A stretch of DNA of 32,000 nucleotides from an uncultured Chloroflexia bacterium (GTDB lineage Bacteria; Chloroflexota; Ktedonobacteria; Ktedonobacterales; JADMIN01): assembly GCA_963718915.1 (NCBI GenBank), contig CAVRAI010000004.1, positions 330,001 through 362,000 on the forward strand. The letters are read 5' to 3'. The translations under genes were made by a program, and so were the position numbers. The notes under the pieces were generated by a model. That model was not told where the DNA came from and ran no database searches. It saw only the letters and a program-made list of their open reading frames with translations. Shown here in pieces: positions 2,604 through 31,294 of the stretch; the first letter of the stretch is position 1; each line of letters begins with the position of its first letter.

Positions 2604-3779
2604 ATGGGAATGGCGCATATGATCGAGGGGCGGCTGACATACGCCGAAGAGTTGACCCGTATTTTTCGTCACGTAGTTGGCGCCGTGCTGCTCTCCTGGC
2701 AGCGAGTCCTCCGTGTGGGGTTGGTAACAGCCGCGATTGTGTGGTTACTGACTGAGATCGTTGCCTGCGTCATGTCATCCTCGTTTCCGCCTCCCGCTGT
2801 AACGTATCTGGTTGCTGCCGCGCTGGCGGTTGCCGTGAGCTATGGTGTCGCTCTCACGCTGCTGCTGGGAATGCTGCTGCGCGGTGGCGTCAGGTTCGTC
2901 CGCCAGCTGGAAGGCGAGGTCGAGATTGGCGCCCACGTCGCCAGCGTCTTTGCCCGTCGTGAGGTTAGCGGCCTGGGCGCGACTTTCAGGCGTATCGTCG
3001 AGAGTGGCGCCCCGACTGTAAATACGGCAATGGGAGGTGGAACAAGCCACAGGCCCACCGTGAAGCCGCGAACTTCTCGCGGTCCAGCGGTATCGGCGAC
3101 ATCGGCGGCAGTGACGGCGGTTGGGCTGGACGTCGCGCGCGCCACTGTGCGTCAATCGCCAACCACGCCCGAACCAACGGCTGCTCTGCCGTACAATGCG
3201 CAACCCGACACCCGCCGCGACCCGGACGACGCGATCATTCGCGCGCCCGCACCAGAACTCCCCTCGCTGCCCGTACTCGCCTCACACCTGCCGCGTATCG
3301 AGTGGACGTATGACGAGAAATTGCCGCCTGTGACGCGAGCGCCATTGGTGGTGTCCACGGCTCAGGATGCTGATGTGCCAGTCGTTCCCGTACTCGCCAC
3401 CACCTTGACTCCCGACGATATGGCAACGACACTGGGTGCGCCCGAAGCCCAGGAAGCCCAGGAAGCCCCAGCGACACCCGAAAACGCAGATGATTCAGGA
3501 AATACGCCCGATGTGCCCGGGCTTATCCCGCGAGGGTATCGCGCCGACAGTACGACCCGTCCGTTGCCCGCGATCACCCGCCCATTATCAGCCAATACGC
3601 AGCCGCTGACCCCGCCTGATGGGGCGCGCGCGCCGGGTGGAGTTCGTTCCGGCGGGTTATGGGAGCGTGTCAGCCAGGCGCTGGTTGGGCAGCCTGCGTC
3701 GGCTGACCATGGCGCTCGCCAGGATGAGCCGCCGCTCGCTGGTGAAGTCATGCCTGAAGACGCCTGGCTAAACGGGTAG
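2604..3779 (+). CDS. Hypothetical 2-TM membrane protein with a long Pro/Thr/Ala-rich, apparently disordered C-terminal region
   Basis: 391 aa. Two hydrophobic helices (LVTAAIVWLLTEIVACVM; VTYLVAAALAVAVSYGVALTLLLGMLL) are followed by ~290 aa of low-complexity P/T/A/R-rich sequence that includes EAQEAQEA. The membrane core is recognisably similar to the 4715..5272 protein. The start is ambiguous among ATGs at 2604, 2610 and 2619. Confidence 0.7.
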   Translation: MGMAHMIEGRLTYAEELTRIFRHVVGAVLLSWQRVLRVGLVTAAIVWLLTEIVACVMSSSFPPPAVTYLVAAALAVAVSYGVALTLLLGMLLRGGVRFVRQLEGEVEIGAHVASVFARREVSGLGATFRRIVESGAPTVNTAMGGGTSHRPTVKPRTSRGPAVSATSAAVTAVGLDVARATVRQSPTTPEPTAALPYNAQPDTRRDPDDAIIRAPAPELPSLPVLASHLPRIEWTYDEKLPPVTRAPLVVSTAQDADVPVVPVLATTLTPDDMATTLGAPEAQEAQEAPATPENADDSGNTPDVPGLIPRGYRADSTTRPLPAITRPLSANTQPLTPPDGARAPGGVRSGGLWERVSQALVGQPASADHGARQDEPPLAGEVMPEDAWLNG

Positions 3780-4714: not shown

Positions 4715-5272
4715 GTGGAACAGCGATTGATGAAGCTGCTGGGAACGGCTGCCAAGCATACCCTCGAGGCGTTGCGACGCGCTCTATTTGCGGTATTTAT
4801 CACGGGACTGCTGGTGGCGTTGATTACAGCGGTCGCGACTGAGCTTGTCGGATTCCTGTTGACCAAGCAGATCAGCGGCCCGACCCATCTGGCGGCTGCG
4901 GCGCTGGCGCTGGCGTTTGGCTACGCGATAGCGGTGACCGTCTTCCTTGGTGAGATTCTGCGCGCTATCATCAAGATTATCGAGATGATCGTCGAAGAGT
5001 CTGAGAAGCTGGCCGCCGCAGCCATCAAGGAAGCCGAAGTGCTGGCGCAAAAGGCGGAGGGTGAAGCGGCGCGCTTCGGCCATGCCGCCGTTGGAGATGT
5101 CGGCGCGCTGGGCCACGGGCTGGAGCACGTTGTCGGTGGCGCGGCGGGCGCGATTGGCGGAGTGGCCTCCGGCGCGGCTCACGAGGTTGGGCATATCGAG
5201 CATGGCGTCGCCAGCCACATCCCTGGGCATCACAATGCTCCGACCGCCCCAACGCAGTCAACGAACTCTTAA
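4715..5272 (+). CDS. Hypothetical 2-TM membrane protein, paralog of the 2604 protein core, with a coiled-coil segment and a His/Gly-rich tail
   Basis: GTG start with AAGAGGAG 7 nt upstream. LLVALITAVATELVGFLL...THLAAAALALAFGYAIAVTVFLGEILR aligns with LVTAAIVWLLTEIVACVM...TYLVAAALAVAVSYGVALTLLLGMLLR of the 2604 protein (about 30% identity by eye). The tail carries 9 His in ~67 aa. Confidence 0.7.
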   Translation: MEQRLMKLLGTAAKHTLEALRRALFAVFITGLLVALITAVATELVGFLLTKQISGPTHLAAAALALAFGYAIAVTVFLGEILRAIIKIIEMIVEESEKLAAAAIKEAEVLAQKAEGEAARFGHAAVGDVGALGHGLEHVVGGAAGAIGGVASGAAHEVGHIEHGVASHIPGHHNAPTAPTQSTNS

Positions 5273-5484
5273 ATTCGACAGCGCTGTTTTGGCGCGAAAC
5301 ATTGAGCGGGCTGGTGGTCGCGCCTGATTGCGCGGGGCCATTGGTCCGTTCCGTTTGCGGTTCGCTGCGCGTCGGTGTTAGGCTGGCTCAGGCATACAGC
5401 ACACAGCGGCGACCACAGCGGCCTACTCGATAGCTTCGTGTGAACAGTGGGTCTGTGCGCCGGGTTCGTTTCCTGGAGCAGGCG

Positions 5485-6570
5485 ATGCATCGTCGGTATT
5501 TCTGGCTGGCAGTGGCGCTTGCCGTACTCATCGTGAGCGCCACCGGATACATTCTGGCCGGAAACTATTTGTACGCGCAATACCAGTCGAGCTTTGCCAG
5601 CTATACCACTTCATGTGATACCCTGATTTCGTGGAATCCACCAACGCGACTTTATACTGGCCTCTACGTCAATGCGCCTGATCTGGCCACTGTTCGCTAC
5701 CGCAGCCAGACACGGCAGACGCTACACATCTCACTCAGTATCCCCCAGTTCACGCAGGAAGACACTGTCGACGTGACGGCGACCTCGAGCTTTCAGCAGC
5801 ACGCCTTTAAGCCACAGGTGCTCGGCTCCGCGGCACTCGATGCGCTGGTAGGACCAGGCCAGCGCACTGCCCAACTGCAATTGCGGGTGCAATCACTGAA
5901 CAAAGTACTCTGTGATACCAGCGTGCCGCTGACATTGCTCTCGCGCCAGTGGATGAGTTGGCGCGATCCAGCCAGTGGCGACAACTCCGCGTATCTGGCG
6001 GGGTGGGTGACCCCCAACGCGCCAGTGATTTCAGATCTGGTCGGGCGCGCCGCGGAACGGCTGGCTGCCTCTCCCGCCAGTTATCCTGCCACCACTGTAA
6101 TGCATGGCTACGACGCTGGTCACGCAACGGCCGATGATGTGCGCGGCCAGGTAAACGCCCTGTTCGACACCTTGCAGTTCGACTACCACGTGCATTACGC
6201 CAGCGACAACATCCCGTTCAATCAGGACGCTACCCAGCGGATCCAGTTGCCCGCGGATATTCTCACACAAAGCGCGCCGACAGGGATGTGTGTCGAGACG
6301 ACGGCGATTCTCGCCTCGGCGGTTGAGCATCTGGGGATGCGCCCATATATCATCATCGTGCCGGGCCATGCATTTATTGGGGTGGCTCTTGGCGCCGATC
6401 CTGGCGCCCCTATTGAATACTGGGAGACATCGGATCTCAATGGCGCCACCGGTAGCCAGGCGCATGTGCATGGTCAGAGCGAATATCTTACCTATCAACA
6501 GCGCAACCAGATTCTGCGTGTGATAGATATTCAATATGAGCGCCAACATGGCATTCTGCCAATCGAATAG
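5485..6570 (+). CDS. Membrane-anchored protein with a C-terminal transglutaminase-like (papain-fold Cys-His-Asp/Glu) domain
   Basis: The track ORF is 5440..6570. I prefer the ATG at 5485 (GGAG 6 nt upstream). N-terminal anchor: YFWLAVALAVLIVSATGYILAG. The C-terminal segment GMCVETTAILASAVEHLGMRPYIIIVPGHAFIGVALGADPGAPIEYWETSD has the G-x-C...G-x-P/R...x-G-H-a-f...W-E/D-x-x-D spacing of transglutaminase-core proteins. Confidence 0.7.
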   Translation: MHRRYFWLAVALAVLIVSATGYILAGNYLYAQYQSSFASYTTSCDTLISWNPPTRLYTGLYVNAPDLATVRYRSQTRQTLHISLSIPQFTQEDTVDVTATSSFQQHAFKPQVLGSAALDALVGPGQRTAQLQLRVQSLNKVLCDTSVPLTLLSRQWMSWRDPASGDNSAYLAGWVTPNAPVISDLVGRAAERLAASPASYPATTVMHGYDAGHATADDVRGQVNALFDTLQFDYHVHYASDNIPFNQDATQRIQLPADILTQSAPTGMCVETTAILASAVEHLGMRPYIIIVPGHAFIGVALGADPGAPIEYWETSDLNGATGSQAHVHGQSEYLTYQQRNQILRVIDIQYERQHGILPIE

Positions 6571-6590: not shown

Positions 6591-7847
6591 ATGGACGGAA
6601 GCGCGTTTCCAACATGGATGGGTGTAGGAGGCTATGTCGGCCTGTCCTGTGCTATGGTGGCTGCCGCTACCCTTGCCGTCTGGGCGATTGTCTATCGCCG
6701 CGGCACCACGCGCCAGTCTGCGATGGCTATCCTGATTTGCCTGCTCTGCGCGGTGTTGATGATCCTTCCGCTCTGGTGGGAGCAATCACGCTTCCAGTTC
6801 TTCGGCAGCAGCCTCGGTGGGATCGAAGTAGCGCTGGTATTGACATGGATCTCTCTCTTCGGCTGGACCCTCCCGCTGGGCATGCTGGCGAGCTTCGTCG
6901 CGTTGGCCGAGCCGAACAAGCCTATCGAGCGACAGGGGCCACGACATAGTCCACTGCTCGACGCGACCCTTCGGTTGGCGCTGGCCGACCCGGCGCGCTA
7001 CCTCTCCGTCAGGCATCATGATGAACCCTGGGCGCAGCTGGTTGCGGTCAGTGATGTGCCTTCCAGGAGCGTACGCACGCTCCTGTTGCGCAAACAGTTA
7101 ACCCTGATTGGGCGTGAGGTAGATAACGATATCATTCTGGATGACGAGCGTATGTCACGACACCATGCTGAGATTCGCATGGATCATGGTATGGCTGTGT
7201 TGCTGGATTATGGGAGCATGAATGGCACCCTACTTAACCGGCAGATGGTTACTCAACCAGTCCCTCTCAAGCCCAACGACATTGTGGATCTGGGCATGCG
7301 AAGCTATCGGTTTTCACTGATTGAGGGGCCGTTCGCTACTGATGAGGGAGAGACCTCCAAGATGCCTGGCGCTGGTGGAATGAATCGCAGGCAGACATTG
7401 CCGCCAGTTGGCCCACCAATCCTCGTAGCCATCAGTGGCGAGCTGACAAGCGCCCGCTGGGAGTTGCTGGAGCAGGTTATCACTATCGGGCGCGACGCAT
7501 CGTGCCAGATTCGGTTGCCAGATACGACGGTCTCGCGCCTCCATGCCCAGGTTGTGCGACAGGCCGATGGCTATTATGCCAGTGATCTGGAAAGCAACAA
7601 TGGCACCATGGTGAACGACGAAGATCTCAAGAAGCCACATCGCCTGCAGCATGGTGATGTGCTCCATCTGGGGACGGTCGCGCTACGCTTCATTTCGTCG
7701 ATGCCACCGTTGGATATGCCGCCTCCTCCACCACCGAACCGTATCCGACCACCCTCCGGCGGAAAGTCATCAAGCCGGACGACAATTCCCTTCTCACGTG
7801 GGGCAGTGCTTCGTCCGATAGATGAGGGGCAGCAACCACACAATTAA
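6591..7847 (+). CDS. Polytopic membrane protein with two cytoplasmic FHA domains
   Basis: 418 aa, starting 20 nt after the previous stop. About 4 N-terminal TM helices. FHA1: LTLIGREVDNDIILDDERMSRHHAEIRMDHGMAVLLDYGSMNGTLLN. FHA2: ITIGRDASCQIRLPDTTVSRLHAQVVRQADGYYASDLESNNGTMVN. Both keep the G-R...S-R/x-H...N-G-T signature. A Pro-rich tail follows. Confidence 0.85.
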   Translation: MDGSAFPTWMGVGGYVGLSCAMVAAATLAVWAIVYRRGTTRQSAMAILICLLCAVLMILPLWWEQSRFQFFGSSLGGIEVALVLTWISLFGWTLPLGMLASFVALAEPNKPIERQGPRHSPLLDATLRLALADPARYLSVRHHDEPWAQLVAVSDVPSRSVRTLLLRKQLTLIGREVDNDIILDDERMSRHHAEIRMDHGMAVLLDYGSMNGTLLNRQMVTQPVPLKPNDIVDLGMRSYRFSLIEGPFATDEGETSKMPGAGGMNRRQTLPPVGPPILVAISGELTSARWELLEQVITIGRDASCQIRLPDTTVSRLHAQVVRQADGYYASDLESNNGTMVNDEDLKKPHRLQHGDVLHLGTVALRFISSMPPLDMPPPPPPNRIRPPSGGKSSSRTTIPFSRGAVLRPIDEGQQPHN

Positions 7848-8818
7848 CGGAGCCGGTGCATTCCGCGCGTTTTCGGCCAACCACCGCCGAGCGCTGGCCG
7901 TACTGAACTCGGAGCGGCAGGGGCTTGATGCCAGGCCTCTGTCCCAGGCAATATCGGGGCGACTGGCGTGCCAGACGCTGGCCGTGTGGATGGGGCCTCC
8001 TCTGGCGTTGCAGAGCCTGATGCGCCCGCTGTTGCTGGGGCGCCGGATTGAGGCGACGCGGTATTCGCTGCCGTGAGCGCGTGCGCGGGCATGGTGGAAA
8101 CAACAGGCGCCCCAGCACGCGATGAGGACGCCTGCCTGGTCTGCGTCATGGCGCGAATGGCATCGCGGCGGGTGTCGGCGAGTTGTGTTTCGTGCATGGC
8201 TGCCAGCATCTTTTGGCCGCTGACCAGGAGCACCCCCGCCCCGATGATGAAAAGATAGAGTCCACCCTGGGGCGAGAGCAGAAGGTTGGATGGATCGCTG
8301 CCGAAAGATTGCGCGAAGATTTGTGTGAGGGGCGCGAGCAGCAGCCAGATCGATCCGGCGATGCCCGCGCAGAACGCGCCAATGATCAGCGGGAGGGCCG
8401 ACCAGATGGGGTGCTGGCGGAGAGATGGTGTGAAGACGGGCAGTATTGCCGCTGCCAGCAGCGCCACCACCACAATCACCGGAGCGCCAAGACTGGCAGG
8501 CGTGACATTCTGACCGTTAACGCTGACCCAGGGTAACAGGAGATCGGCCGCCATACCCAGCGAGACGCCCAGCACGAAGCGCCCTGGCAAATCGCGGGGC
8601 AAACCGGTCGCCGATACGTCGCCGACATATTTGACCGCAGTCGCGTTCTGCGACGAAGGTGGAGGTGTCGCCCGCGTTCCAGCCGCGAACATATCTGGGG
8701 TCGCTTGCGCGGGCTGTGGCTCGACCATCGAGCGCTCGCGGTCGCCGTAGACATGCCCGCAGGCCGGACAGACTCGTGCCCGAACAGCCATCTCCGTGCC
8801 GCATTCGAGGCAGAACAT
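7844..8818 (-). CDS. Zinc-ribbon membrane protein (N-terminal CxxC...CxxC, disordered linker, ~4-5 TM, low-complexity tail)
   Basis: 324 aa. MFCLECGTEMAVRARVCPACGH is the zinc ribbon. GGGAGGAG lies 5 nt upstream of the ATG (complement of 8816-8818). The stop codon overlaps the stop of the convergent FHA gene within TTAA at 7844-7847. Confidence 0.75.
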   Translation of the reverse strand: MFCLECGTEMAVRARVCPACGHVYGDRERSMVEPQPAQATPDMFAAGTRATPPPSSQNATAVKYVGDVSATGLPRDLPGRFVLGVSLGMAADLLLPWVSVNGQNVTPASLGAPVIVVVALLAAAILPVFTPSLRQHPIWSALPLIIGAFCAGIAGSIWLLLAPLTQIFAQSFGSDPSNLLLSPQGGLYLFIIGAGVLLVSGQKMLAAMHETQLADTRRDAIRAMTQTRQASSSRAGAPVVSTMPAHALTAANTASPQSGAPATAGASGSATPEEAPSTRPASGTPVAPILPGTEAWHQAPAAPSSVRPALGGGWPKTRGMHRLR

Positions 8819-13113: not shown

Positions 13114-13212
13114 AGTGTGTCGGGCCATGGATGATGTGCAGGCTGGTGTCAAACGTGTATACTCATGCTGGCAATCAGCGTGGGTAGATGGCCCAGATGT
13201 AGGAGTGATGGT

Positions 13213-13908
13213 ATGACTCAAGAGGTGGCGGCTACCATGAGCGCGCCGGAGGGCGGGCTGTTGCGAGCGTGGATCGATGCACTGGCGCATCCCGAATACG
13301 AGACATACGCGCGCTGGTATCTGCGGATGAATGCCCGCTGGCGGCGCATCTCACTCGCGGTCTCGCTGCCATTGCTGCTGATCGCGATTCTTGTGGTTAT
13401 TGCTCATGACGCTATGCGCGTGGGCAATAGCTTCCAGACGTTAACGCTAAGCCGCTTTCTGAGTTACCTTGGCTCGCCGCACGGCCTCTTTGAGCTATTT
13501 GACTTATTCGCTGCTGCGCTGCTGACGATAGTTGCGATTCCCGCAACTGCTGCTTTATTCGCGCATCGCAGCATTGGCCGATACCACATCCGCTGCTATA
13601 TCGCCTACTGCACATTCATGCAAACATTGCCCATGGCCTGCGTTTTCCTGGTACTGGGCGCCATGGGGTATCTGGTTTTAGGCTTCTTCGATTCGACGTC
13701 GTTCGTTCATCAGATCGCTGTCATTGTCTTTGTCTTCTCGCCAGTAAACGTGGCATGGGGGCTTGGCTGCACAGGACTCTGCGCGGCCACACTCCGAAAT
13801 ACCTATCTAGTATGGTCAGTGACACTGGCGGTATATGTCGTCATCGTTTTGCTCATGTGGCATCTGCTAGGACATATCCTGGTATCAATCGGATACCCGG
13901 TACTCTGA
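13213..13908 (+). CDS. Hypothetical multipass membrane protein (5-6 TM)
   Basis: The track ORF is 13165..13908. I prefer the ATG at 13213 (AGGAG at 13201-13205). Cytoplasmic N-terminus, then hydrophobic helices throughout. Noticeably more A/T-rich than neighbouring genes. I recognise no family motif. Confidence 0.65.
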   Translation: MTQEVAATMSAPEGGLLRAWIDALAHPEYETYARWYLRMNARWRRISLAVSLPLLLIAILVVIAHDAMRVGNSFQTLTLSRFLSYLGSPHGLFELFDLFAAALLTIVAIPATAALFAHRSIGRYHIRCYIAYCTFMQTLPMACVFLVLGAMGYLVLGFFDSTSFVHQIAVIVFVFSPVNVAWGLGCTGLCAATLRNTYLVWSVTLAVYVVIVLLMWHLLGHILVSIGYPVL

Positions 13909-13950
13909 GTGTTTCCCTTGCATGAGGAAGAGATGGCTGAATGGCGACGC

Positions 13951-15813
13951 TCAGTCAAAAAAGATACCGCTGACTACCGCATTGGAATTCAGATTGGTCA
14001 CTGTGAAGCGCACGTGTCCGCGCACCAGCCACACCAGATACTTACCGCCGCGGAACTGATCGTTTGCGTTCGTGTCGCCTTTGGCCTGCCCCACTGTGCG
14101 TGAGTCGAGTACCTTGCCGGTAGTGGCGTTCACTGCCTCGATGCGCTCCACACGCCCACCCCCATAGCCATCCCAGTCCAGCAGATACATCGCCAGTCGA
14201 TGTGTTGCGCCGTCGGTCACCCCGATGTCAATCGTGAAAGTCGGACTGACGTTAGTATACCAACACGCCGCGATGCGGCCAGATCCTCCCGCGCCGGGGG
14301 GCTTCTGGAGAGCGCGCGTGTCAGTTGTTCCATCTGCCCAGACATAGAGGCTTTCCGAATTGATATTCACGATCAGATAGCCGGGAATCTTGTTAAATGT
14401 TGGATATGATGAATGGATAATGTCGTTGGGCGCCAGGATATATCCTTGCCCGCCATATTTGCCAGTCCAGTTTCCACCAGTCGTGGTGTCCACCTTCACG
14501 AAAGTCGCCTGTACGGCAGGCGGTGGTACCGGAGTGGCAGTGGGAACGGAAGTTGGTGTAGGTGAAGGTACAGGAGTGAGCGTGGGAGTGGGCGAGGGTA
14601 GAAGTGTCGCCGTCGGGTGAGCTGTTGGCCCGAAACCGAAAATCGGCAGCTCCATCTGGCGGGCGACGCCATAGGATGCCGCCCCGCAAAGGCTCACCAC
14701 CAGCACACCTACTGCCAGCGCCATGAACAGCGCGCGCCTCGTCAACGGCGCGCGGCGGGTTCCTTCTCGCCGATCTTCACGCCTGTTCCCAGGCCCGAGC
14801 CATGCCGCGGCGGTAACACGCGAATCTTCCAGGGAAGGCGGCTCCGTTGGCATCTCATCCGCACTTCCCGAACGTGCGCGGAAGGGGTTGCCCCTGATGG
14901 CATTCTCGCGCGTTGTGCGCCGCAGCCCAGGCAGCCCGGTGAGCAGGCTCGTGCCCTTCGGGAAGACGGCTCGCCGCGCGGCGAATCCGAAGCTGCTCGC
15001 GTCGGGGTAGCGCGCCGCTGGATCGGAGGCGAGCGCGATCATTACGACATCCTCAAGCTCCTCGCTGATGCCAGGTACGAGCGTCGAGGGGGGAGTGATC
15101 TTGCCCTGCAGAGAAAGCGCCGCCACCTGATACGGTGTCTCGGCCTCATGTGGGGAGTGCCCAGTGAGCAATTCATACAACACCGCGCCCAGCGCATAGA
15201 TATCGGCGCGCTCGTCAATGGACTCGCCACGCAACTGCTCGGGCGCCATGTATTCCGGCGTTCCGACCGGCAGGCCCGTCGCCGAGAGTGTCTGCGCCAT
15301 GCGGCCCGTGCGCGACATCGTCACGGGTCGGGCGATGCCAAAATCAGTCAGGAACGCCTCGTCCTTATCGTTGAGTAGAATGTTTTCCGGCTTGACATCG
15401 CGATGCACTAGGCCCGCCGCGTGCGCCACCGAGAGCGCCGAGGCGATCTGCACGATGAGTCGTCCAGCCTCCTTTGGCGCAAGCCTGCCTTCCCGCTCCA
15501 GCCGGTCGCGCAGCGACTCGTTAAGTAGGGGCATCACATGGTACAGGAGAGGGCCTTCTTCGCCAAAGTGGTAGACCGGAACGATATGGGGATGATTGAG
15601 CGCCGCAACACGTTGCGCCTCCGTGCGGAAACGCTGCACGTAGTTCGGGTCGCTCGCCAGCGAGGCGGGCAATACCTTGACGGCGACCGGCCGCTTGAGC
15701 TTCACGTCGAAGCCGCGATAGACCTCCGCCATGCCGCCCGCGCCGAGTAATCCCTGTAGCTGAAAGTCGCCAAGTTGTTTGCCTGTCAGACTTCCCGCGC
15801 CCGCTGACGTCAC
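13951..15813 (-). CDS. Receptor-type Ser/Thr protein kinase: Hanks kinase domain, one TM, Pro/Thr linker, unassigned beta-rich C-terminal ectodomain
   Basis: 620 aa. GTG start with AGGAGG 5 nt upstream. Kinase motifs: GAGGMAEVYRG, VAVKVL, HRDVKPENILL, DFGIA, GTPEYMAPE. TM: ALFMALAVGVLVVSLCGAASYGV. Linker: PTATLLPSPTPTLTPVPSPTPTSVPTATPVPPP. The C-terminal ~190 aa is rich in beta-strand-like segments (...HRLAMYLLDWDGYGGGRVERIEAVNATTGKVLDSRTV...GKYLVWLVRGHVRFTVTNLNSNAVVSGIFFD). Confidence 0.9.
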   Translation of the reverse strand: MTSAGAGSLTGKQLGDFQLQGLLGAGGMAEVYRGFDVKLKRPVAVKVLPASLASDPNYVQRFRTEAQRVAALNHPHIVPVYHFGEEGPLLYHVMPLLNESLRDRLEREGRLAPKEAGRLIVQIASALSVAHAAGLVHRDVKPENILLNDKDEAFLTDFGIARPVTMSRTGRMAQTLSATGLPVGTPEYMAPEQLRGESIDERADIYALGAVLYELLTGHSPHEAETPYQVAALSLQGKITPPSTLVPGISEELEDVVMIALASDPAARYPDASSFGFAARRAVFPKGTSLLTGLPGLRRTTRENAIRGNPFRARSGSADEMPTEPPSLEDSRVTAAAWLGPGNRREDRREGTRRAPLTRRALFMALAVGVLVVSLCGAASYGVARQMELPIFGFGPTAHPTATLLPSPTPTLTPVPSPTPTSVPTATPVPPPAVQATFVKVDTTTGGNWTGKYGGQGYILAPNDIIHSSYPTFNKIPGYLIVNINSESLYVWADGTTDTRALQKPPGAGGSGRIAACWYTNVSPTFTIDIGVTDGATHRLAMYLLDWDGYGGGRVERIEAVNATTGKVLDSRTVGQAKGDTNANDQFRGGKYLVWLVRGHVRFTVTNLNSNAVVSGIFFD

Positions 15814-15998
15814 ATCGTCCTCCTGCCCTGCCGCCCTCCACTGTCAGCGCCTCACCCGGCTGCACGAATCCTGTGGCATGATCGCTGGCCGTCCGATGCG
15901 CCCACAGGATACTGCAATGCGTGGGATACCGCAATGCTCAGGACACAAAACAGCCAGTTGCGCTCCTCACATGGCACGCCGCACGCTCTCTTGCCCAT

Positions 15999-16026
15999 TT
16001 GGCGGCCTGGGTATCCCGTGTATACT
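15999..16026 (+). promoter_or_regulatory. Candidate sigma70-type promoter for the TIR-FGE gene (TTGGCG-16 nt-TATACT)
   Basis: TTGGCG at 15999-16004 and TATACT at 16021-16026, ~77 nt upstream of the ATG at 16103. Confidence 0.4.
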
Positions 16027-16102
16027 GATGCTGACCATGCAGGGGGAGAAGATCGGTTCAGCGGGCGTGGATGCGTCTGCGTGTAAGGGGAGGAGAGGCG
16101 AA

Positions 16103-17302
16103 ATGGCAACCACTCGCCTGTTTGTGAGCCATAGCACCCAGGATAACGCCTGGTGCCGCGAGTTGGTGGCGGCGCTCAAGGCGGCGGGCTACGACGTCTG
16201 GTACGACGAGCAGGGGCTGACCGGCGGCGCCGTCTGGATCGAGACGTTGCAGCGTGAGGTGCAGTCGCGCGATGTCTTCGTCTTTGTGCTGACGCCAGAC
16301 TCGTGGGCATCGCCATGGTGTCAGGAGGAACTGCGGCTGGCGCTTTCCACCCAGCGGACGATTCTGCCGGTGATGCTCAAGCAGACGCCGGTGGAGGGCT
16401 TCCTGCTGACGCGCCAGTGGGTGAACGCGACCGATGTGGATACCGCGTCTGGCGTGAGGCGCGTGCTGGTGGCGCTGGGATCGCCCGTCGTCTTTCCGGC
16501 GGCTCCCGCGCCGAAGCAGATTACGCTCGCGCCCCAGATTGTGCCGCCCACGCTCCAGCAGAGAGGCTTCGTGGGTCGGGTCGTTGATGGCGTCGAGGTG
16601 ATTACACCGCCGATGTGTCTGGTATCCGCTGGCCCGTTCCTGATGGGCACAGATCCACGCCGGGAGCCGGAGGCGGCTGAGCGCGAGGAGCTCCAGCGCC
16701 AGGTGGAGGTCGCCGCATTCTACATCGGCGCGTTTCCGGTGACGGTGGCGGAATACGCCTGTATCCTCAAAGCGCAAGCGATGCGCCCGCCGGAAGCGTG
16801 GTCTACGCAGAGCGCTCGGCACGACCATCCGGTCACGCACATCTCCTGGAAGGCCGCCCTCGCCTATGTCGCGTGGCTGGCGCAGGTCACGGGCGAACCG
16901 TGGCGGCTGCCGACCGAGGAGGAGTGGGAGAAGGCGGCGCGTGGAACCGATGGCCGCATCTATCCCTGGGGCGATGTCTGGGATCGCTCGCGGGCGAACA
17001 CCGACGAAAGCGGGCCGGGCGATACGACGCCGGTTGGATCATATCCCGCTGGAGCCAGCTCGTACGGCGCCCTCGATATGGCAGGCAATGTCAACGAATG
17101 GTGCGGCATCCCGCCAGACTCGCCGCTCTTCCGTCCTGGCGCGTGGACAGGCGAGCAGCGTAAGAGCGCTGGCTACCTCGCGGGCGGCGCCTGGGATGAA
17201 AGCCCGTCGCATACGCGCGCGGCCTACCGCAGCCAACTCTTCATGGGTGAGCAGACCGACGACACCGGATTCCGGCTCGTCTGGCAACCACCCAGCGCGT
17301 AG
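16103..17302 (+). CDS. TIR domain fused to an FGE/SUMF1-like (formylglycine-generating-enzyme fold) domain
   Basis: The track ORF is 15779..17302. I prefer the ATG at 16103 (GGGGAGGAGAGG ends 5 nt upstream), giving 399 aa. TIR: MATTRLFVSHSTQDNAWCRELVAALKAAGYDVWYDEQGL...DVFVFVLTPDSWASPWCQEELRLAL...ILPV. FGE-like: FLMGTDP, FYIGAFPVTVAEY, HPVTHISWKAALAYVAWL, WRLPTEEEWEKAARGTDGRIYPWGD, LDMAGNVNEWC, GGAWDE, TGFRLV. Confidence 0.85.
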   Translation: MATTRLFVSHSTQDNAWCRELVAALKAAGYDVWYDEQGLTGGAVWIETLQREVQSRDVFVFVLTPDSWASPWCQEELRLALSTQRTILPVMLKQTPVEGFLLTRQWVNATDVDTASGVRRVLVALGSPVVFPAAPAPKQITLAPQIVPPTLQQRGFVGRVVDGVEVITPPMCLVSAGPFLMGTDPRREPEAAEREELQRQVEVAAFYIGAFPVTVAEYACILKAQAMRPPEAWSTQSARHDHPVTHISWKAALAYVAWLAQVTGEPWRLPTEEEWEKAARGTDGRIYPWGDVWDRSRANTDESGPGDTTPVGSYPAGASSYGALDMAGNVNEWCGIPPDSPLFRPGAWTGEQRKSAGYLAGGAWDESPSHTRAAYRSQLFMGEQTDDTGFRLVWQPPSA

Positions 17303-20363: not shown

Positions 20364-20577
20364 CGCCTAAAGACTAACGCCGTGCGCCTACAAGGCTGCT
20401 CAATAGCGAGCATTTTCTCCGTATCCTCATGGCACATTCGTCACTCTCGCAGCAGCTTATGCCACTGAATTGACACTCGTGCTGTATCATCGTCACAGCA
20501 TGCTTATTCGTTTGCCGTGCCGCTCTGCTCTCATATTCATCTGCTTACGTCTGCAACCGATGCGAGGTCACTGATTC

Positions 20578-21135
20578 ATGTCATCGATTCGTCTGGCCGA
20601 ACTGCACGCGTTCATCGTCCATTTTTCGATTGCTCTGCTGATAACGAGCGTGGCGCTCGATTTCGCCGCCATCATCTTTCGGCGCGCCAGTCTGGTCGAG
20701 GGCGCGAATTGGGCGCTCATGGTTGGAGCTCCGATGACCCTGATAGCTATGCTCTCCGGGTGGCTGAGCGAGCATAATACGCCCATCAGCACGGCGGGAT
20801 ACGACTTTCTGCGTCTGCATAAGATAATCGCCTTACTGGCGACGATTGTCTTTCTGGCGCTCTTTCTGGCGCGATTCGTGTGGTTATTGTCCCGCCTGGT
20901 CGCATGGCTGGGACTGGCTTTCCCCAAGTCGGGCAGGCTTGCCAATGCGCAGGTCTGGCTGGGCGAGAAGTTGCCGCAGGCATATGTCTCGCAGTTGCCC
21001 CGTGGCGCCATCGTCGCGTATTTGTTGCTGGCCCTCATCGGGGTCGGTCTGCTCGTCGCCACGGGGTACCTCGGCGAGGCGCTGGTCTATCGTTTTGGCA
21101 TCGGGATCTATAGCTCCGGTGCGCTGTTGCCCTAG
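20578..21135 (+). CDS. DUF2231-like integral membrane protein
   Basis: 185 aa. LHAFIVHFSIALLITSVALDFAAI is the characteristic first helix, and there are four TM helices in total. Confidence 0.75.
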   Translation: MSSIRLAELHAFIVHFSIALLITSVALDFAAIIFRRASLVEGANWALMVGAPMTLIAMLSGWLSEHNTPISTAGYDFLRLHKIIALLATIVFLALFLARFVWLLSRLVAWLGLAFPKSGRLANAQVWLGEKLPQAYVSQLPRGAIVAYLLLALIGVGLLVATGYLGEALVYRFGIGIYSSGALLP

Positions 21136-30105: not shown

Positions 30106-31152
30106 CTATGACAAGAACTCGAACGATTGCAGTATCTGCTGGAAGGTCGGTTCTATCGTCGCGAAGGTATCCACCGGGGCCAGCTCGAGCGCGTAGACGG
30201 TGTTGCCACCGTGGATGGTCGCGAGCGCTATTGCGTGCATTGGCGTGAGCTTCCCATTTTGCTGCACCGTGACATCGCCCGATTCCTGTGTCCAGGTCTG
30301 CCCCGCGATAAATACCGTTGTTGGCCCACTACGATTGGCGATTCCTGTTTTCTGCGCCAGCACTGCCAGGGCGCTGTCCGCCACCTGCTGCGCCGGAACG
30401 TCGGTCGTGGCAAACGTCCCAACATTGAAGTTTGCGCCAGCGGTGGGATTCGAGAAGATGACGAGGCGTGGTGACTGATTGTTCTGGATGGTCTGCAGCC
30501 ACCCAGTGGGATAGCCGACACTGAACACGTTGCCACTATCGGTGAAGATTTTGAGATTGCTCGCAGGGGTGGCTGTCGGCGCGGGTGTCGCGGTCGCCGA
30601 TGCGGTCGCGGTCGGTGAGGCGCTGAAGAACGGGAGTCGCCCATTCGCCAGCAGCACACCCGCGCCGCCGACGATCAGCAACAGCACAATCAGCAACAGG
30701 ATAGCAATAAGACCAGATGGGACGCGCCTGCGGCCTGTGTCTGCTGGTTTGCCGGGAGGCGCGCTCGTCCCAGCGGCAGGCGCGTCGAAGGGAAGCGCTG
30801 GCTGGGTCTGTGACTCTGTAGATGGCATGGCCTGAGCGGGTATGGTCTGGGTACGCGCAGGCGCTGGTGGCATAGGAAAGTCCGCCGTCATGTCCTCAGC
30901 GTTCGTAGTATCACCATCGTCTGAGGTGGTATCAACCTCCGCGACGCTGGCCGTTTCACTGGCTAAGTCGTGCGCTGGCATAGCTTCTGGTAAATCGCTG
31001 GGAAGGATACTCGGACGAGTCGCCGAGTCATCCTCTGCCGACGACGCCAGCACGGGCGCGGCAAGCGGCGTGCCACAGCTTGGACACGCCATCGTTGATC
31101 CAGGTGCGAGCGGCGTGCGCCGCCCGCAGAGAGTACACGCGATGTCCTGCAT
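30106..31152 (-). CDS. Zinc-ribbon single-pass membrane protein with a Thr/Ala/Pro linker and a PsbP/Mog1/DcrB-like ectodomain (tentative)
   Basis: The track ORF is 30106..31209. I prefer the ATG at 31152, MQDIACTLCGRR...ACPSCGTPL (CxxC...CxxC), with GGAG 8 nt upstream. TM: LIAILLLIVLLLIVGGAGVLLA. Linker: SPTATASATATPAPTATPAS. The ectodomain (FSVGYPTGWLQT...ANFNVGTFATTDV...VYALELAPVDTFATIEPTFQQILQSFEF) resembles PsbP-like secreted domains. Confidence 0.7.
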   Translation of the reverse strand: MQDIACTLCGRRTPLAPGSTMACPSCGTPLAAPVLASSAEDDSATRPSILPSDLPEAMPAHDLASETASVAEVDTTSDDGDTTNAEDMTADFPMPPAPARTQTIPAQAMPSTESQTQPALPFDAPAAGTSAPPGKPADTGRRRVPSGLIAILLLIVLLLIVGGAGVLLANGRLPFFSASPTATASATATPAPTATPASNLKIFTDSGNVFSVGYPTGWLQTIQNNQSPRLVIFSNPTAGANFNVGTFATTDVPAQQVADSALAVLAQKTGIANRSGPTTVFIAGQTWTQESGDVTVQQNGKLTPMHAIALATIHGGNTVYALELAPVDTFATIEPTFQQILQSFEFLS

Positions 31153-31294
31153 AGAACTGCTCCAGAAGAAGAGAGCCGGAAGGGCGCGCCAATGCGCACT
31201 TGTAGGCATACGCGAAGCAAAGCAACTCGCTCATGCGCATAGCGCGACGAGATGTACTGGCGCGCGTTCCCGGCAGTAGTGGCGTCGCGAACCG

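Follow-up and report, generated by a model that had tools for sequence, protein, structure and literature searches.

Domains of the FGE-sulfatase family (FGS, PF03781), named after the formylglycine-generating enzyme (FGE), have been predicted by Aravind and colleagues to be intracellular, lectin-like sensors of invaders (PMC7159879, PMC8195603). The NTPase-centred conflict systems of multicellular bacteria that were described in the same work include TIR-STAND-FGS, and in them other domains are fixed N-terminal to the FGS domain (PMC7159879, PMC8195603). Later work described FGE/C-type-lectin (CLec) sensors diversified by diversity-generating retroelements (DGRs), and STAND proteins with FGE-sulfatase sensors (PMC10907252, PMC13581612), and metacaspase-FGE-sulfatase fusions were catalogued in 2012 by Asplund-Samuelsson et al. 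(PMC3501461). We found no description of a direct TIR-FGE fusion, or of TIR proteins of Ktedonobacteria, in the open-access literature. Here we analysed such a fusion gene (16103..17302, + strand) in a 32-kb stretch of DNA (positions 330,001 to 362,000 of contig CAVRAI010000004.1, hereafter the window). The gene is real and intact, encodes a two-domain protein, and belongs to a Ktedonobacterales-type soil bacterium. An earlier note on this DNA, written from the letters, had pointed to FGE-like lectin-fold domains as predicted sensors of conflict systems, a prediction that does stand in the literature cited above. The most likely mechanism of the protein, to which we give a probability of about one half, is that of a stand-alone, soluble, ligand-gated TIR enzyme that cleaves NAD+ (NADase), in which the NADase activity and its gating by a ligand are predicted from the domains.

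The gene starts with ATG at 16103 and ends with the stop codon TGA at 17300-17302, giving a complete product of 399 amino acids. The mechanical open reading frame (ORF) is longer and runs from an upstream TTG at 15779 (15779-17302, + strand), but the full-length homologues, of 391-407 amino acids, start at the same Met as ATG 16103, and we therefore took this ATG and not TTG 15779 as the real start. Pfam profiles placed a TIR_2 domain (PF13676) at residues 7-119 (E 2.3e-26, 93.1 bits against a cutoff of 28) and an FGE-sulfatase domain at residues 169-394 (E 7e-44, 150.8 bits against a cutoff of 23.3). Both matches are far beyond chance and bear out the architecture that the earlier note had proposed. 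The gene limits and sequence motifs quoted there were also all confirmed in the 399-residue ORF, where FVSHS begins at residue 7, WCQEEL at 72, HPVTHISW at 242, RLPTEEEWEKAARG at 268, YPWGD at 287, GNVNEWC at 328, GGAWDE at 361 and GFRLV at 389. Cysteines occur at residues 18, 73, 172, 220 and 334 only. No transmembrane segment or signal peptide was seen in the protein (maximal 19-residue Kyte-Doolittle hydropathy 1.57), and since the first TIR strand begins already at residue 5, with no hydrophobic segment, the protein is predicted to be soluble and cytoplasmic. The full-length AlphaFold (AF2) model had a mean predicted local distance difference test score (pLDDT) of 89.6 and a predicted TM-score (pTM) of 0.71, with pLDDT below 50 only at residues 346-352. 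In this model the two domains are connected (16481..16606, + strand) by a Pro-rich linker (residues 127-139) followed by an N-terminal extension of beta strands (residues 140-168) that packs with the FGE-like domain. The pLDDT was 77-81 in the linker region (residues 121-140) and 98 from residue 141 on (extension 141-168). The strands of the extension lie at residues 140-142, 157-161 and 164-168, and its G-F-x-G...GVEVI-x-PP motif is conserved in the family alignment.

The closest described relatives in domain logic are the TIR-STAND-FGS and vWA-MoxR-FGS systems, themselves predicted (Kaur et al. 2020, 2021). As in those, an effector such as TIR is N-terminal and an FGE/FGS lectin-fold predicted sensor C-terminal; both kinds are also enriched in bacteria of complex morphology, whose genomes carry several paralogues. 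The differences are in the machinery between the two ends. Neither the TIR-FGE protein nor its neighbours have an NTPase switch (STAND, AP-GTPase), vWA/MoxR, an EAD adaptor or a DGR, and only ~40 residues, made up of the linker plus the beta extension, connect TIR directly to FGS. The lineage is also different, Ktedonobacterales here as compared to cyanobacteria and proteobacteria for the published systems. Because NTPase, vWA/MoxR, adaptor and DGR are all missing, the protein is not a member of the NTPase-centred FGS systems and shares only their domain logic. We class it as a variant of the predicted TIR-STAND-FGS systems that lacks the NTPase, and not as a categorically new system. The metacaspase-FGE-sulfatase fusions resemble it in having a death or effector enzyme at the N terminus, FGE-sulfatase at the C terminus and no NTPase, but their effector is a caspase-like protease and they are found mainly in cyanobacteria and Bacteroidetes.

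The TIR domain (residues 5-126; 16115..16480, + strand) was AbTir/PdTIR-like by Pfam, by profile matches to PDB entries, and by AF2 and Foldseek. In phmmer alignments W72-C-Q-E-E76-L stood opposite W-P-Q-K-E-L of PdTIR (3h16), W-T-E-Y-E-L of 7uxr and W-C-W-D-E-L of Cat1, and also opposite W-C-H-Y-E-L of TLR6. Every alignment displayed had the same Glu column, and the Glu in the catalytic position is thus the second E of WCQEEL, E76. This narrows down the homology with the NADase Glu that had been claimed for the motif, and makes Glu76 of W72-x-x-x-E76 (codon 16328..16330, + strand) the predicted catalytic residue. E76 is retained in 123 of 126 family members, as are F7, S9, H10, D35 and W72, and is invariant in family alignments A1 and A3. 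A profile built from 26 TIR domains of the family and searched against PDB gave 7uxr (7e-18), AbTir 7uwg (2e-16), PdTIR (2e-16), 'NAD(+) hydrolase AbTIR' 8g83 (4.8e-16), Cat1 (7e-16), BtpA/TcpB and SARM1 (~1e-11). The AlphaFold model of the TIR part (pLDDT 83) is predicted to have the flavodoxin-like alternating beta/alpha fold of TIR domains. With this model Foldseek found the TIR domains of SARM1, SPARTA and AbTir with E values of 5e-7 to 4e-5 and a query-normalised TM-score (TMq) of 0.68-0.84, the TMq being 0.74-0.84 for SPARTA TIR-APAZ and 0.78 for AbTir:3AD.

SARM1, TIR-STING, TIR-SAVED, Cat1 CARF-TIR and SPARTA TIR-APAZ all consist of a W-x-x-x-E TIR domain fused to a ligand-sensing module, which in the TIR-FGE protein is a predicted one. 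The sensors are different, since an FGE-like lectin fold stands here in the place of ARM, STING, SAVED, CARF or APAZ/Ago, and no cyclase, CRISPR or Argonaute partner was found for TIR-FGE in the window. More specifically, the window has no cyclase gene, and the C-terminal domain is of the FGE-like and not of the SAVED, STING or CARF type. A neighbour of the ThsA type (SIR2, Macro, SLOG) was found neither in the window nor in the related loci inspected, and the TIR-level matches to ThsB and to ThcB4 of Thoeris type III were far below the cutoffs. Membership in Thoeris, CBASS, Pycsar or SPARTA was rejected, as there were only partial matches at the level of the TIR domain and no partners; the absence of a ThsA, STING or CBASS partner is as the earlier note had described it.

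A first alternative starts from the same comparison. The FGE-like domain would still sense a ligand, but a ThsB-like TIR would then make a signal of the cyclic ADP-ribose (cADPR) type for an effector encoded elsewhere, instead of killing by NAD+ depletion. The matches of the TIR part to the ThsB and ThcB4 models speak for this, as do the fold and motif that it has in common with AbTir, a producer of cADPR isomers, and the several paralogues per genome could feed one common effector. However, no ThsA, SLOG, SIR2, Macro or SAVED gene was near any inspected locus and the known signalling TIR systems are operonic, which leaves a remote effector unlikely, though it is the alternative that survives best.

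The FGE-like domain (residues 169-394; 16607..17284, + strand), of C-type-lectin-like fold, was identified by Pfam, by sequence matches to PDB and by Foldseek. By sequence its closest structures were ToxD (7spq, 5e-30), EgtB (1e-18) and pFGE/SUMF2 (1y4j, 2.1e-18), followed by CalU17, human and bacterial FGE (~1e-13) and PvdO. The ToxD sequence alignment spans residues 199-334 only and loses the C-terminal segment. Foldseek also placed ToxD first (1.2e-19, 34% identity), and next CalU17, EgtB, pFGE (2.3e-15), the FGE of human, S. coelicolor and other bacteria (~1e-13 to 1e-14), PvdO and TvpA. With SARM1 and AbTir found for the N-terminal half and human FGE and pFGE for the C-terminal half, the structure prediction agreed with the two folds that had been suggested from sequence.

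The fold is kept, and the FGE chemistry is lost. FGE has a catalytic Cu(I)-binding Cys pair between GGS[YW] and GFR, which we take to be C336 and C341 of the human enzyme, in line with the titles of PDB entries 2aft (C336S) and 2afy (C341S). The GGxW...GFR segment here reads GGAWDESPSHTRAAYRSQLFMGEQTDDTGFR and has no Cys. Because there is no Cys anywhere after residue 334, the Cys pair is absent, as the earlier reading of this segment had it. In the sequences of relatives that were displayed the segment holds at most one Cys, as in 'ARCAYR'. EgtB-type enzymes have their iron site in an N-terminal DinB domain. No Pfam match to DinB was found in the TIR-FGE protein, where TIR_2 occupies the N terminus, and the NCBIfam equivalog scores were far below the cutoffs (EgtB 63.7 bits against 360, SenA 46 against 420, PvdO 63.8 against 500, and GldK likewise). 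A genuine FGE, or a sulfoxide synthase of the EgtB, OvoA or SenA type, was therefore rejected: the Cys pair is absent, TIR replaces a DinB domain with its iron-binding His triad, and the NCBIfam scores are below cutoff, so that the domain has an FGE-like fold but is neither FGE nor EgtB. The database name 'SUMF1/EgtB/PvdO family nonheme iron enzyme' is a label of the superfamily only.

Two relatives of this domain deserve comparison. pFGE/SUMF2 (1y4j), the non-catalytic human paralogue of FGE, was among the best matches in both sequence and structure and has the FGE fold without the catalytic cysteines. It is a single-domain, eukaryotic protein of the endoplasmic reticulum lumen, whereas the present domain is cytoplasmic, bacterial and fused to TIR. 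ToxD (7spq), of toxoflavin biosynthesis, is the closest solved structure, but it has one domain only and its gene is part of a biosynthetic operon, and there are no tox-like genes at the TIR-FGE locus. The position of ToxD at the head of the list, with PvdO and CalU17 also among the matches, supports a second alternative, in which the FGE-like domain is itself catalytic, a tailoring or oxidative enzyme of the ToxD/PvdO/CalU17 kind acting on a small molecule or peptide, and TIR only oligomerises or regulates it. The FGE core is also the most constrained part of the protein (ratio of nonsynonymous to synonymous substitution rates, dN/dS, 0.046), with many invariant Trp, Arg and Asn residues. Against this, there is neither the Cys pair nor a DinB iron domain, no biosynthetic cluster surrounds any inspected copy, the segment equivalent to the active site is the least conserved, and the TIR domain strictly keeps its catalytic-type Glu. 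We regard a catalytic FGE-like domain as improbable.

Selection was estimated against the orthologue of 93% identity (locus L001). The dN/dS was 0.078 overall (dS 0.42); by region, TIR gave 0.13, the FGE core 0.046 and residues 335-399 gave 0.10. Purifying selection is strong and constrains both halves, and the gene is functional. Among close orthologues the divergence was even along the protein, with 82-87.5% identity in all regions. Identity to distant paralogues was 56% in the FGE core and 36% in TIR, and fell to 16% in the loop 335-360 and 34% in residues 361-399; in four paralogues of one genome residues 335-399 were again the most variable. By paralogue identity and pLDDT, the most variable part of the FGE-like domain is residues 335-388 (17105..17266, + strand), made up of the low-confidence loop 335-360 and GGxW...GFR.

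This variable C-terminal segment is the counterpart of the active-site segment in FGE and of the variable region in the DGR protein TvpA, and the last 90 residues had TvpA (2y3c) as their best PDB match (7.5e-4). A constant scaffold with a variable C-terminal face has been described for CLec/FGS binding domains (PMC7159879). The variability of residues 335-399 could be a binding-face pattern of this kind, or could be ordinary loop tolerance. The likeness to the DGR variable proteins of CLec/FGS fold lies in the match to the last 90 residues and in GGxW...GFR being most variable. It does not extend to the mode of variation: the 32-kb window holds no template repeat involving the TIR-FGE gene and no reverse transcriptase among its Pfam-scanned ORFs, divergence between orthologues is even, which argues against DGR-like hypermutation, and selection is purifying, with a C-terminal dN/dS of 0.08-0.10. 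On this evidence from the gene and its 32-kb window, a DGR target, with a pair of template and variable repeats, was rejected.

Ten genomic contexts were inspected, namely the window, the loci of the 93% and 84% orthologues (L001 and L089) and seven further loci. The window, L001 and L089 share one synteny, with 20 kb kept around the orthologues. Homologues at 73%, 73%, 64% and 62% identity, and three other paralogues of a 5.07-Mb genome, were each in a different, mostly housekeeping setting. No conserved partner gene was found, and none of those seven loci had a neighbour in common with the others. The TIR-FGE gene behaves as a solitary, relocating unit, and the contexts inspected look like neither conserved housekeeping synteny nor a clear defence island. 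On the survey of neighbourhoods that the earlier note had called for the outcome was mixed, with one shared housekeeping synteny in the window, L001 and L089, a different and mostly housekeeping setting at each of the seven further loci, and defence-candidate or mobile neighbours at only two of all the loci.

Ligand-induced TIR assembly is known for SARM1, TIR-STING, TIR-SAVED, Cat1 and SPARTA, whose structures are among the matches of the TIR fold, and the ligand-gated mechanism that we favour is borrowed from them. In it, the non-catalytic, FGE-like lectin-fold domain would act as the ligand-binding module, with specificity set mainly by the variable C-terminal 65 residues. Binding of the ligand would drive or release self-association of the N-terminal TIR of AbTir/SARM1 type, and TIR assembly would create composite active sites around Glu76, leading to NAD+ cleavage. 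The outcome could be NAD+ depletion with growth arrest, or signals in the form of ADP-ribose or cADPR isomers. Precedents for FGS sensors joined to TIR, caspase or kinase effectors are available (PMC7159879, PMC8195603, PMC10907252, PMC13581612, PMC3501461). As to the biological role, filamentous Ktedonobacteria could use the protein in immunity or for programmed cell death, or it could take part in another kind of stress or metabolite signalling. The earlier note had seen in it a one-protein immune sensor with NADase activity. The structural side of this is correct, and sensor plus NADase is also the most likely mechanism here, but an immune role, while plausible, is unsupported by the ten contexts, which have no conserved partner.

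Several observations weigh against this reading as a ligand-gated NADase. PADLOC matched the TIR-FGE protein through its TIR part only and has no model of the whole protein. The dN/dS is low, unlike that of a fast-evolving sensor in an arms race, and the FGE core is better conserved than TIR among paralogues (56% vs 36%), which is again unlike such a sensor. The extra variability of residues 335-399 may merely reflect loop tolerance in this fold. The neighbourhoods are mostly housekeeping, with the two defence-candidate or mobile neighbours being anecdotal. Finally, the phmmer alignments show the motif Glu also in the TIR domains of TLR1/2/6/15. TIR domains of TLRs are not known to be NADases, and since they have the same Glu, Glu76 would be necessary but not sufficient for NADase activity.

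A further step, which we put forward as tentative and as clearly less probable than the mechanism itself, is that the TIR-FGS proteins of Ktedonobacterales are minimal intracellular receptors for pattern recognition, encoded in the germline as a repertoire that has expanded through paralogues. No NTPase switch would stand between the lectin-fold sensor and the TIR NADase, which would be coupled directly, and the variable C-terminal face of each paralogue would recognise a different ligand of invader or self-damage origin. If true, this would be a bacterial 'sensor + TIR' class of receptors, with the logic of Toll-like receptors but enzymatic. If the ligand-gated mechanism itself holds, the family would be the simplest form in which an FGS lectin-fold sensor is coupled to a TIR NADase, with two domains in 400 residues, and would add a new type of input to the ligand-gated TIR enzymes. 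The sensing role of FGS, until now a computational prediction (Kaur et al. 2020, 2021), would become approachable without NTPases, adaptors and DGRs, and the abundance of the family in Ktedonobacterales would bear on cell-death and immunity signalling of filamentous, spore-forming bacteria. Should the family instead prove to consist of signalling enzymes with a housekeeping role, it would serve as a counter-example to the view that all TIR fusions of bacteria are defences against phages.

A third alternative makes the TIR domain a non-enzymatic adaptor, which in a developmentally complex bacterium would assemble homotypically, as in the scaffolding of TLR and MyD88, with the FGE-like domain as its receptor. 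The motif Glu and the TIR signature are common to the non-NADase TIR domains of TLRs, the window is rich in signalling genes (Ser/Thr kinase, FHA and TPR proteins), and both the strong purifying selection and the housekeeping context would suit such a role. With the family profile, however, AbTIR, 7uxr, PdTIR and Cat1, all of them NADase TIRs of bacteria, score better than TLRs, the bacterial TIR_2 domains tested so far are to our knowledge generally NADases, and no gene for a TIR-domain partner lies nearby. An adaptor is about as improbable as a catalytic FGE-like domain. As for the proposal of a functional pair with the adjacent, divergent Ser/Thr kinase (13951-15813, - strand), as a defence or signalling module related to PD-T4-6, it is highly improbable and largely refuted: the kinase matches PADLOC PD-T4-6 kinase models at 4e-90 and stays adjacent in the 93% and 84% orthologous loci, but the PADLOC matches cover a generic Hanks kinase domain, adjacency carries no specific information because these close relatives keep all 20 kb of the synteny, and no kinase neighbours the homologues at 73%, 64% and 62% identity or any paralogue.

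The TIR-FGE protein belongs to a large, abundant, uncharacterised and database-populated family, and is no rarity. A word-index search gave 7866 proteins, of which the best 120 were nearly all TIR_2 plus FGE-sulfatase proteins of 390-460 amino acids; the named sources among these matches were all Ktedonobacterales metagenome-assembled genomes (MAGs). In an exhaustive search 152,587 representatives passed E <= 1e-3, most of them FGE domains of any kind, and 3168 passed E <= 1e-30. Architectures were counted in the 150 best representatives at 50% identity. TIR and FGE occurred together in 75 of them, as TIR-FGE (69/150) or as TIR with two or three FGE repeats (6/150), while TIR was embedded in an FGE array in 1/150, seven tandem TIR domains were present in 1/150, and FGE stood by itself, in one to eleven repeats, in 73/150. 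The length of the spacer between TIR and FGE was bimodal, 0-100 and 170-300 residues. Longer relatives had TIR_2 in 27 of 63, and TPR, Pkinase, Trypsin_2 or WD40 in a few. At least four dispersed paralogues (P0011, P0090, P0105 and P0118) were found in the 5.07-Mb Ktedonobacterales genome. A scan of genome contigs gave at least three TIR+FGE loci, with no Ktedonobacterales among the matches listed; these lie outside Ktedonobacterales in a Bryobacteraceae MAG (L047), another Chloroflexota MAG (L018) and an unclassified bacterium (L012).

Some relatives have unusual architectures. P0175 (1773 aa) has seven tandem matches to the family TIR profile and no FGE, an unusual poly-TIR protein. P0121 (2987 aa), P0122 (4448 aa) and P0158 (3362 aa) have 7-11 tandem FGE-like domains with 30-38% identity to the one described here, and the family TIR profile had no match in these three giant proteins. 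A search for homologues with TIR only gave 14 short fragments. In the 84% orthologue (L089 10001-11375) the gene is split by a single +1 frameshift at codon 223, so that residues 1-223 are followed by residues 223-396 in the next frame. The short TIR-only ORFs P0264, P0265, P0269 and P0271 break at differing positions. As the breaks are scattered in position, a programmed frameshift or split gene was rejected, and the frameshifts and short ORFs are read as scattered assembly errors or decay.

Viral contigs were scanned with the single protein and with the family alignment. In total 193 stretches (L092-L170), confirmed by tblastn, encode related FGE-like domains, with 29-39% identity among the 80 listed. 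Of these 80, all but two matched from residue 139 or later, and those two from residue 73. Among the viral matches listed, none spanned the whole TIR domain in either scan, and on this ground a prophage or viral origin of TIR-FGE was rejected. The viral FGE-like relatives are probably DGR-target or receptor-binding proteins of phages.

Around the TIR-FGE gene the window holds housekeeping and signalling genes, which encode a luciferase-like oxidoreductase, an FHA protein, a TPR protein, an ArgD-like aminotransferase, ArgJ, the membrane Ser/Thr kinase, an enoyl-CoA hydratase, a thiolase, a peptide deformylase, a MiaB-like radical SAM enzyme, a PucR regulator and a PMT-family glycosyltransferase. 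No tRNA genes were found in the window, and there was no obvious compositional island, the GC content being 0.55-0.66 throughout. The FHA protein has two FHA domains (6591-7847, + strand) and lies beside a zinc-ribbon protein (7844-8818, - strand), in an arrangement that is kept in L001 and L089. Together with the kinase and two TPR proteins it makes the region rich in phospho-signalling genes. The divergent kinase has 620 amino acids, with an N-terminal Hanks kinase, a Pro/Thr-rich stretch, one hydrophobic segment and a C-terminal part of ~200 residues without a Pfam match, and its PD-T4-6 match is probably generic Hanks-kinase similarity. Six ORFs of the window (164-391 aa) had no Pfam or PADLOC match: 2604-3779, 4715-5272, 5440-6570, 13165-13908, 20568-21062 and 30106-31209. 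The position of 13165-13908 is conserved in L001 and L089.

Upstream of the TIR-FGE start a Shine-Dalgarno-like purine tract, GGGGAGGAGAGG (16087..16098, + strand), was read from the sequence and may serve as the ribosome-binding site. Between the kinase gene and the TIR-FGE gene, the divergent intergenic region of 289 bp has a weak sigma-70-like promoter match, TTGGCG-16-TATACT (15999..16026, + strand), which agrees with the consensus at 9/12 positions. As the scan found one site against 0.4 expected, this is at most a candidate promoter.

In the 71 neighbours of eight other loci the specific PADLOC matches were limited to Fic/VbhA (PDC-S04) and Bro-N (PDC-S13), and the rest were generic. At L091 (10001-15624) a TIR-X-FGE paralogue of 604 amino acids lies ~1 kb from a Fic/VbhA toxin-antitoxin pair (PDC-S04, 7.5e-73) and ~2.3 kb from a phage portal gene; no other copy inspected stands at a clear border of a mobile element. 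At L004 the Bro-N protein (13357-14295; PDC-S13, 1.6e-96) also matches the N-terminal part of a type I specificity-subunit model. Its gene is ~2 kb downstream of the TIR-FGE homologue, among many small unannotated ORFs, and this stretch may be a prophage remnant.

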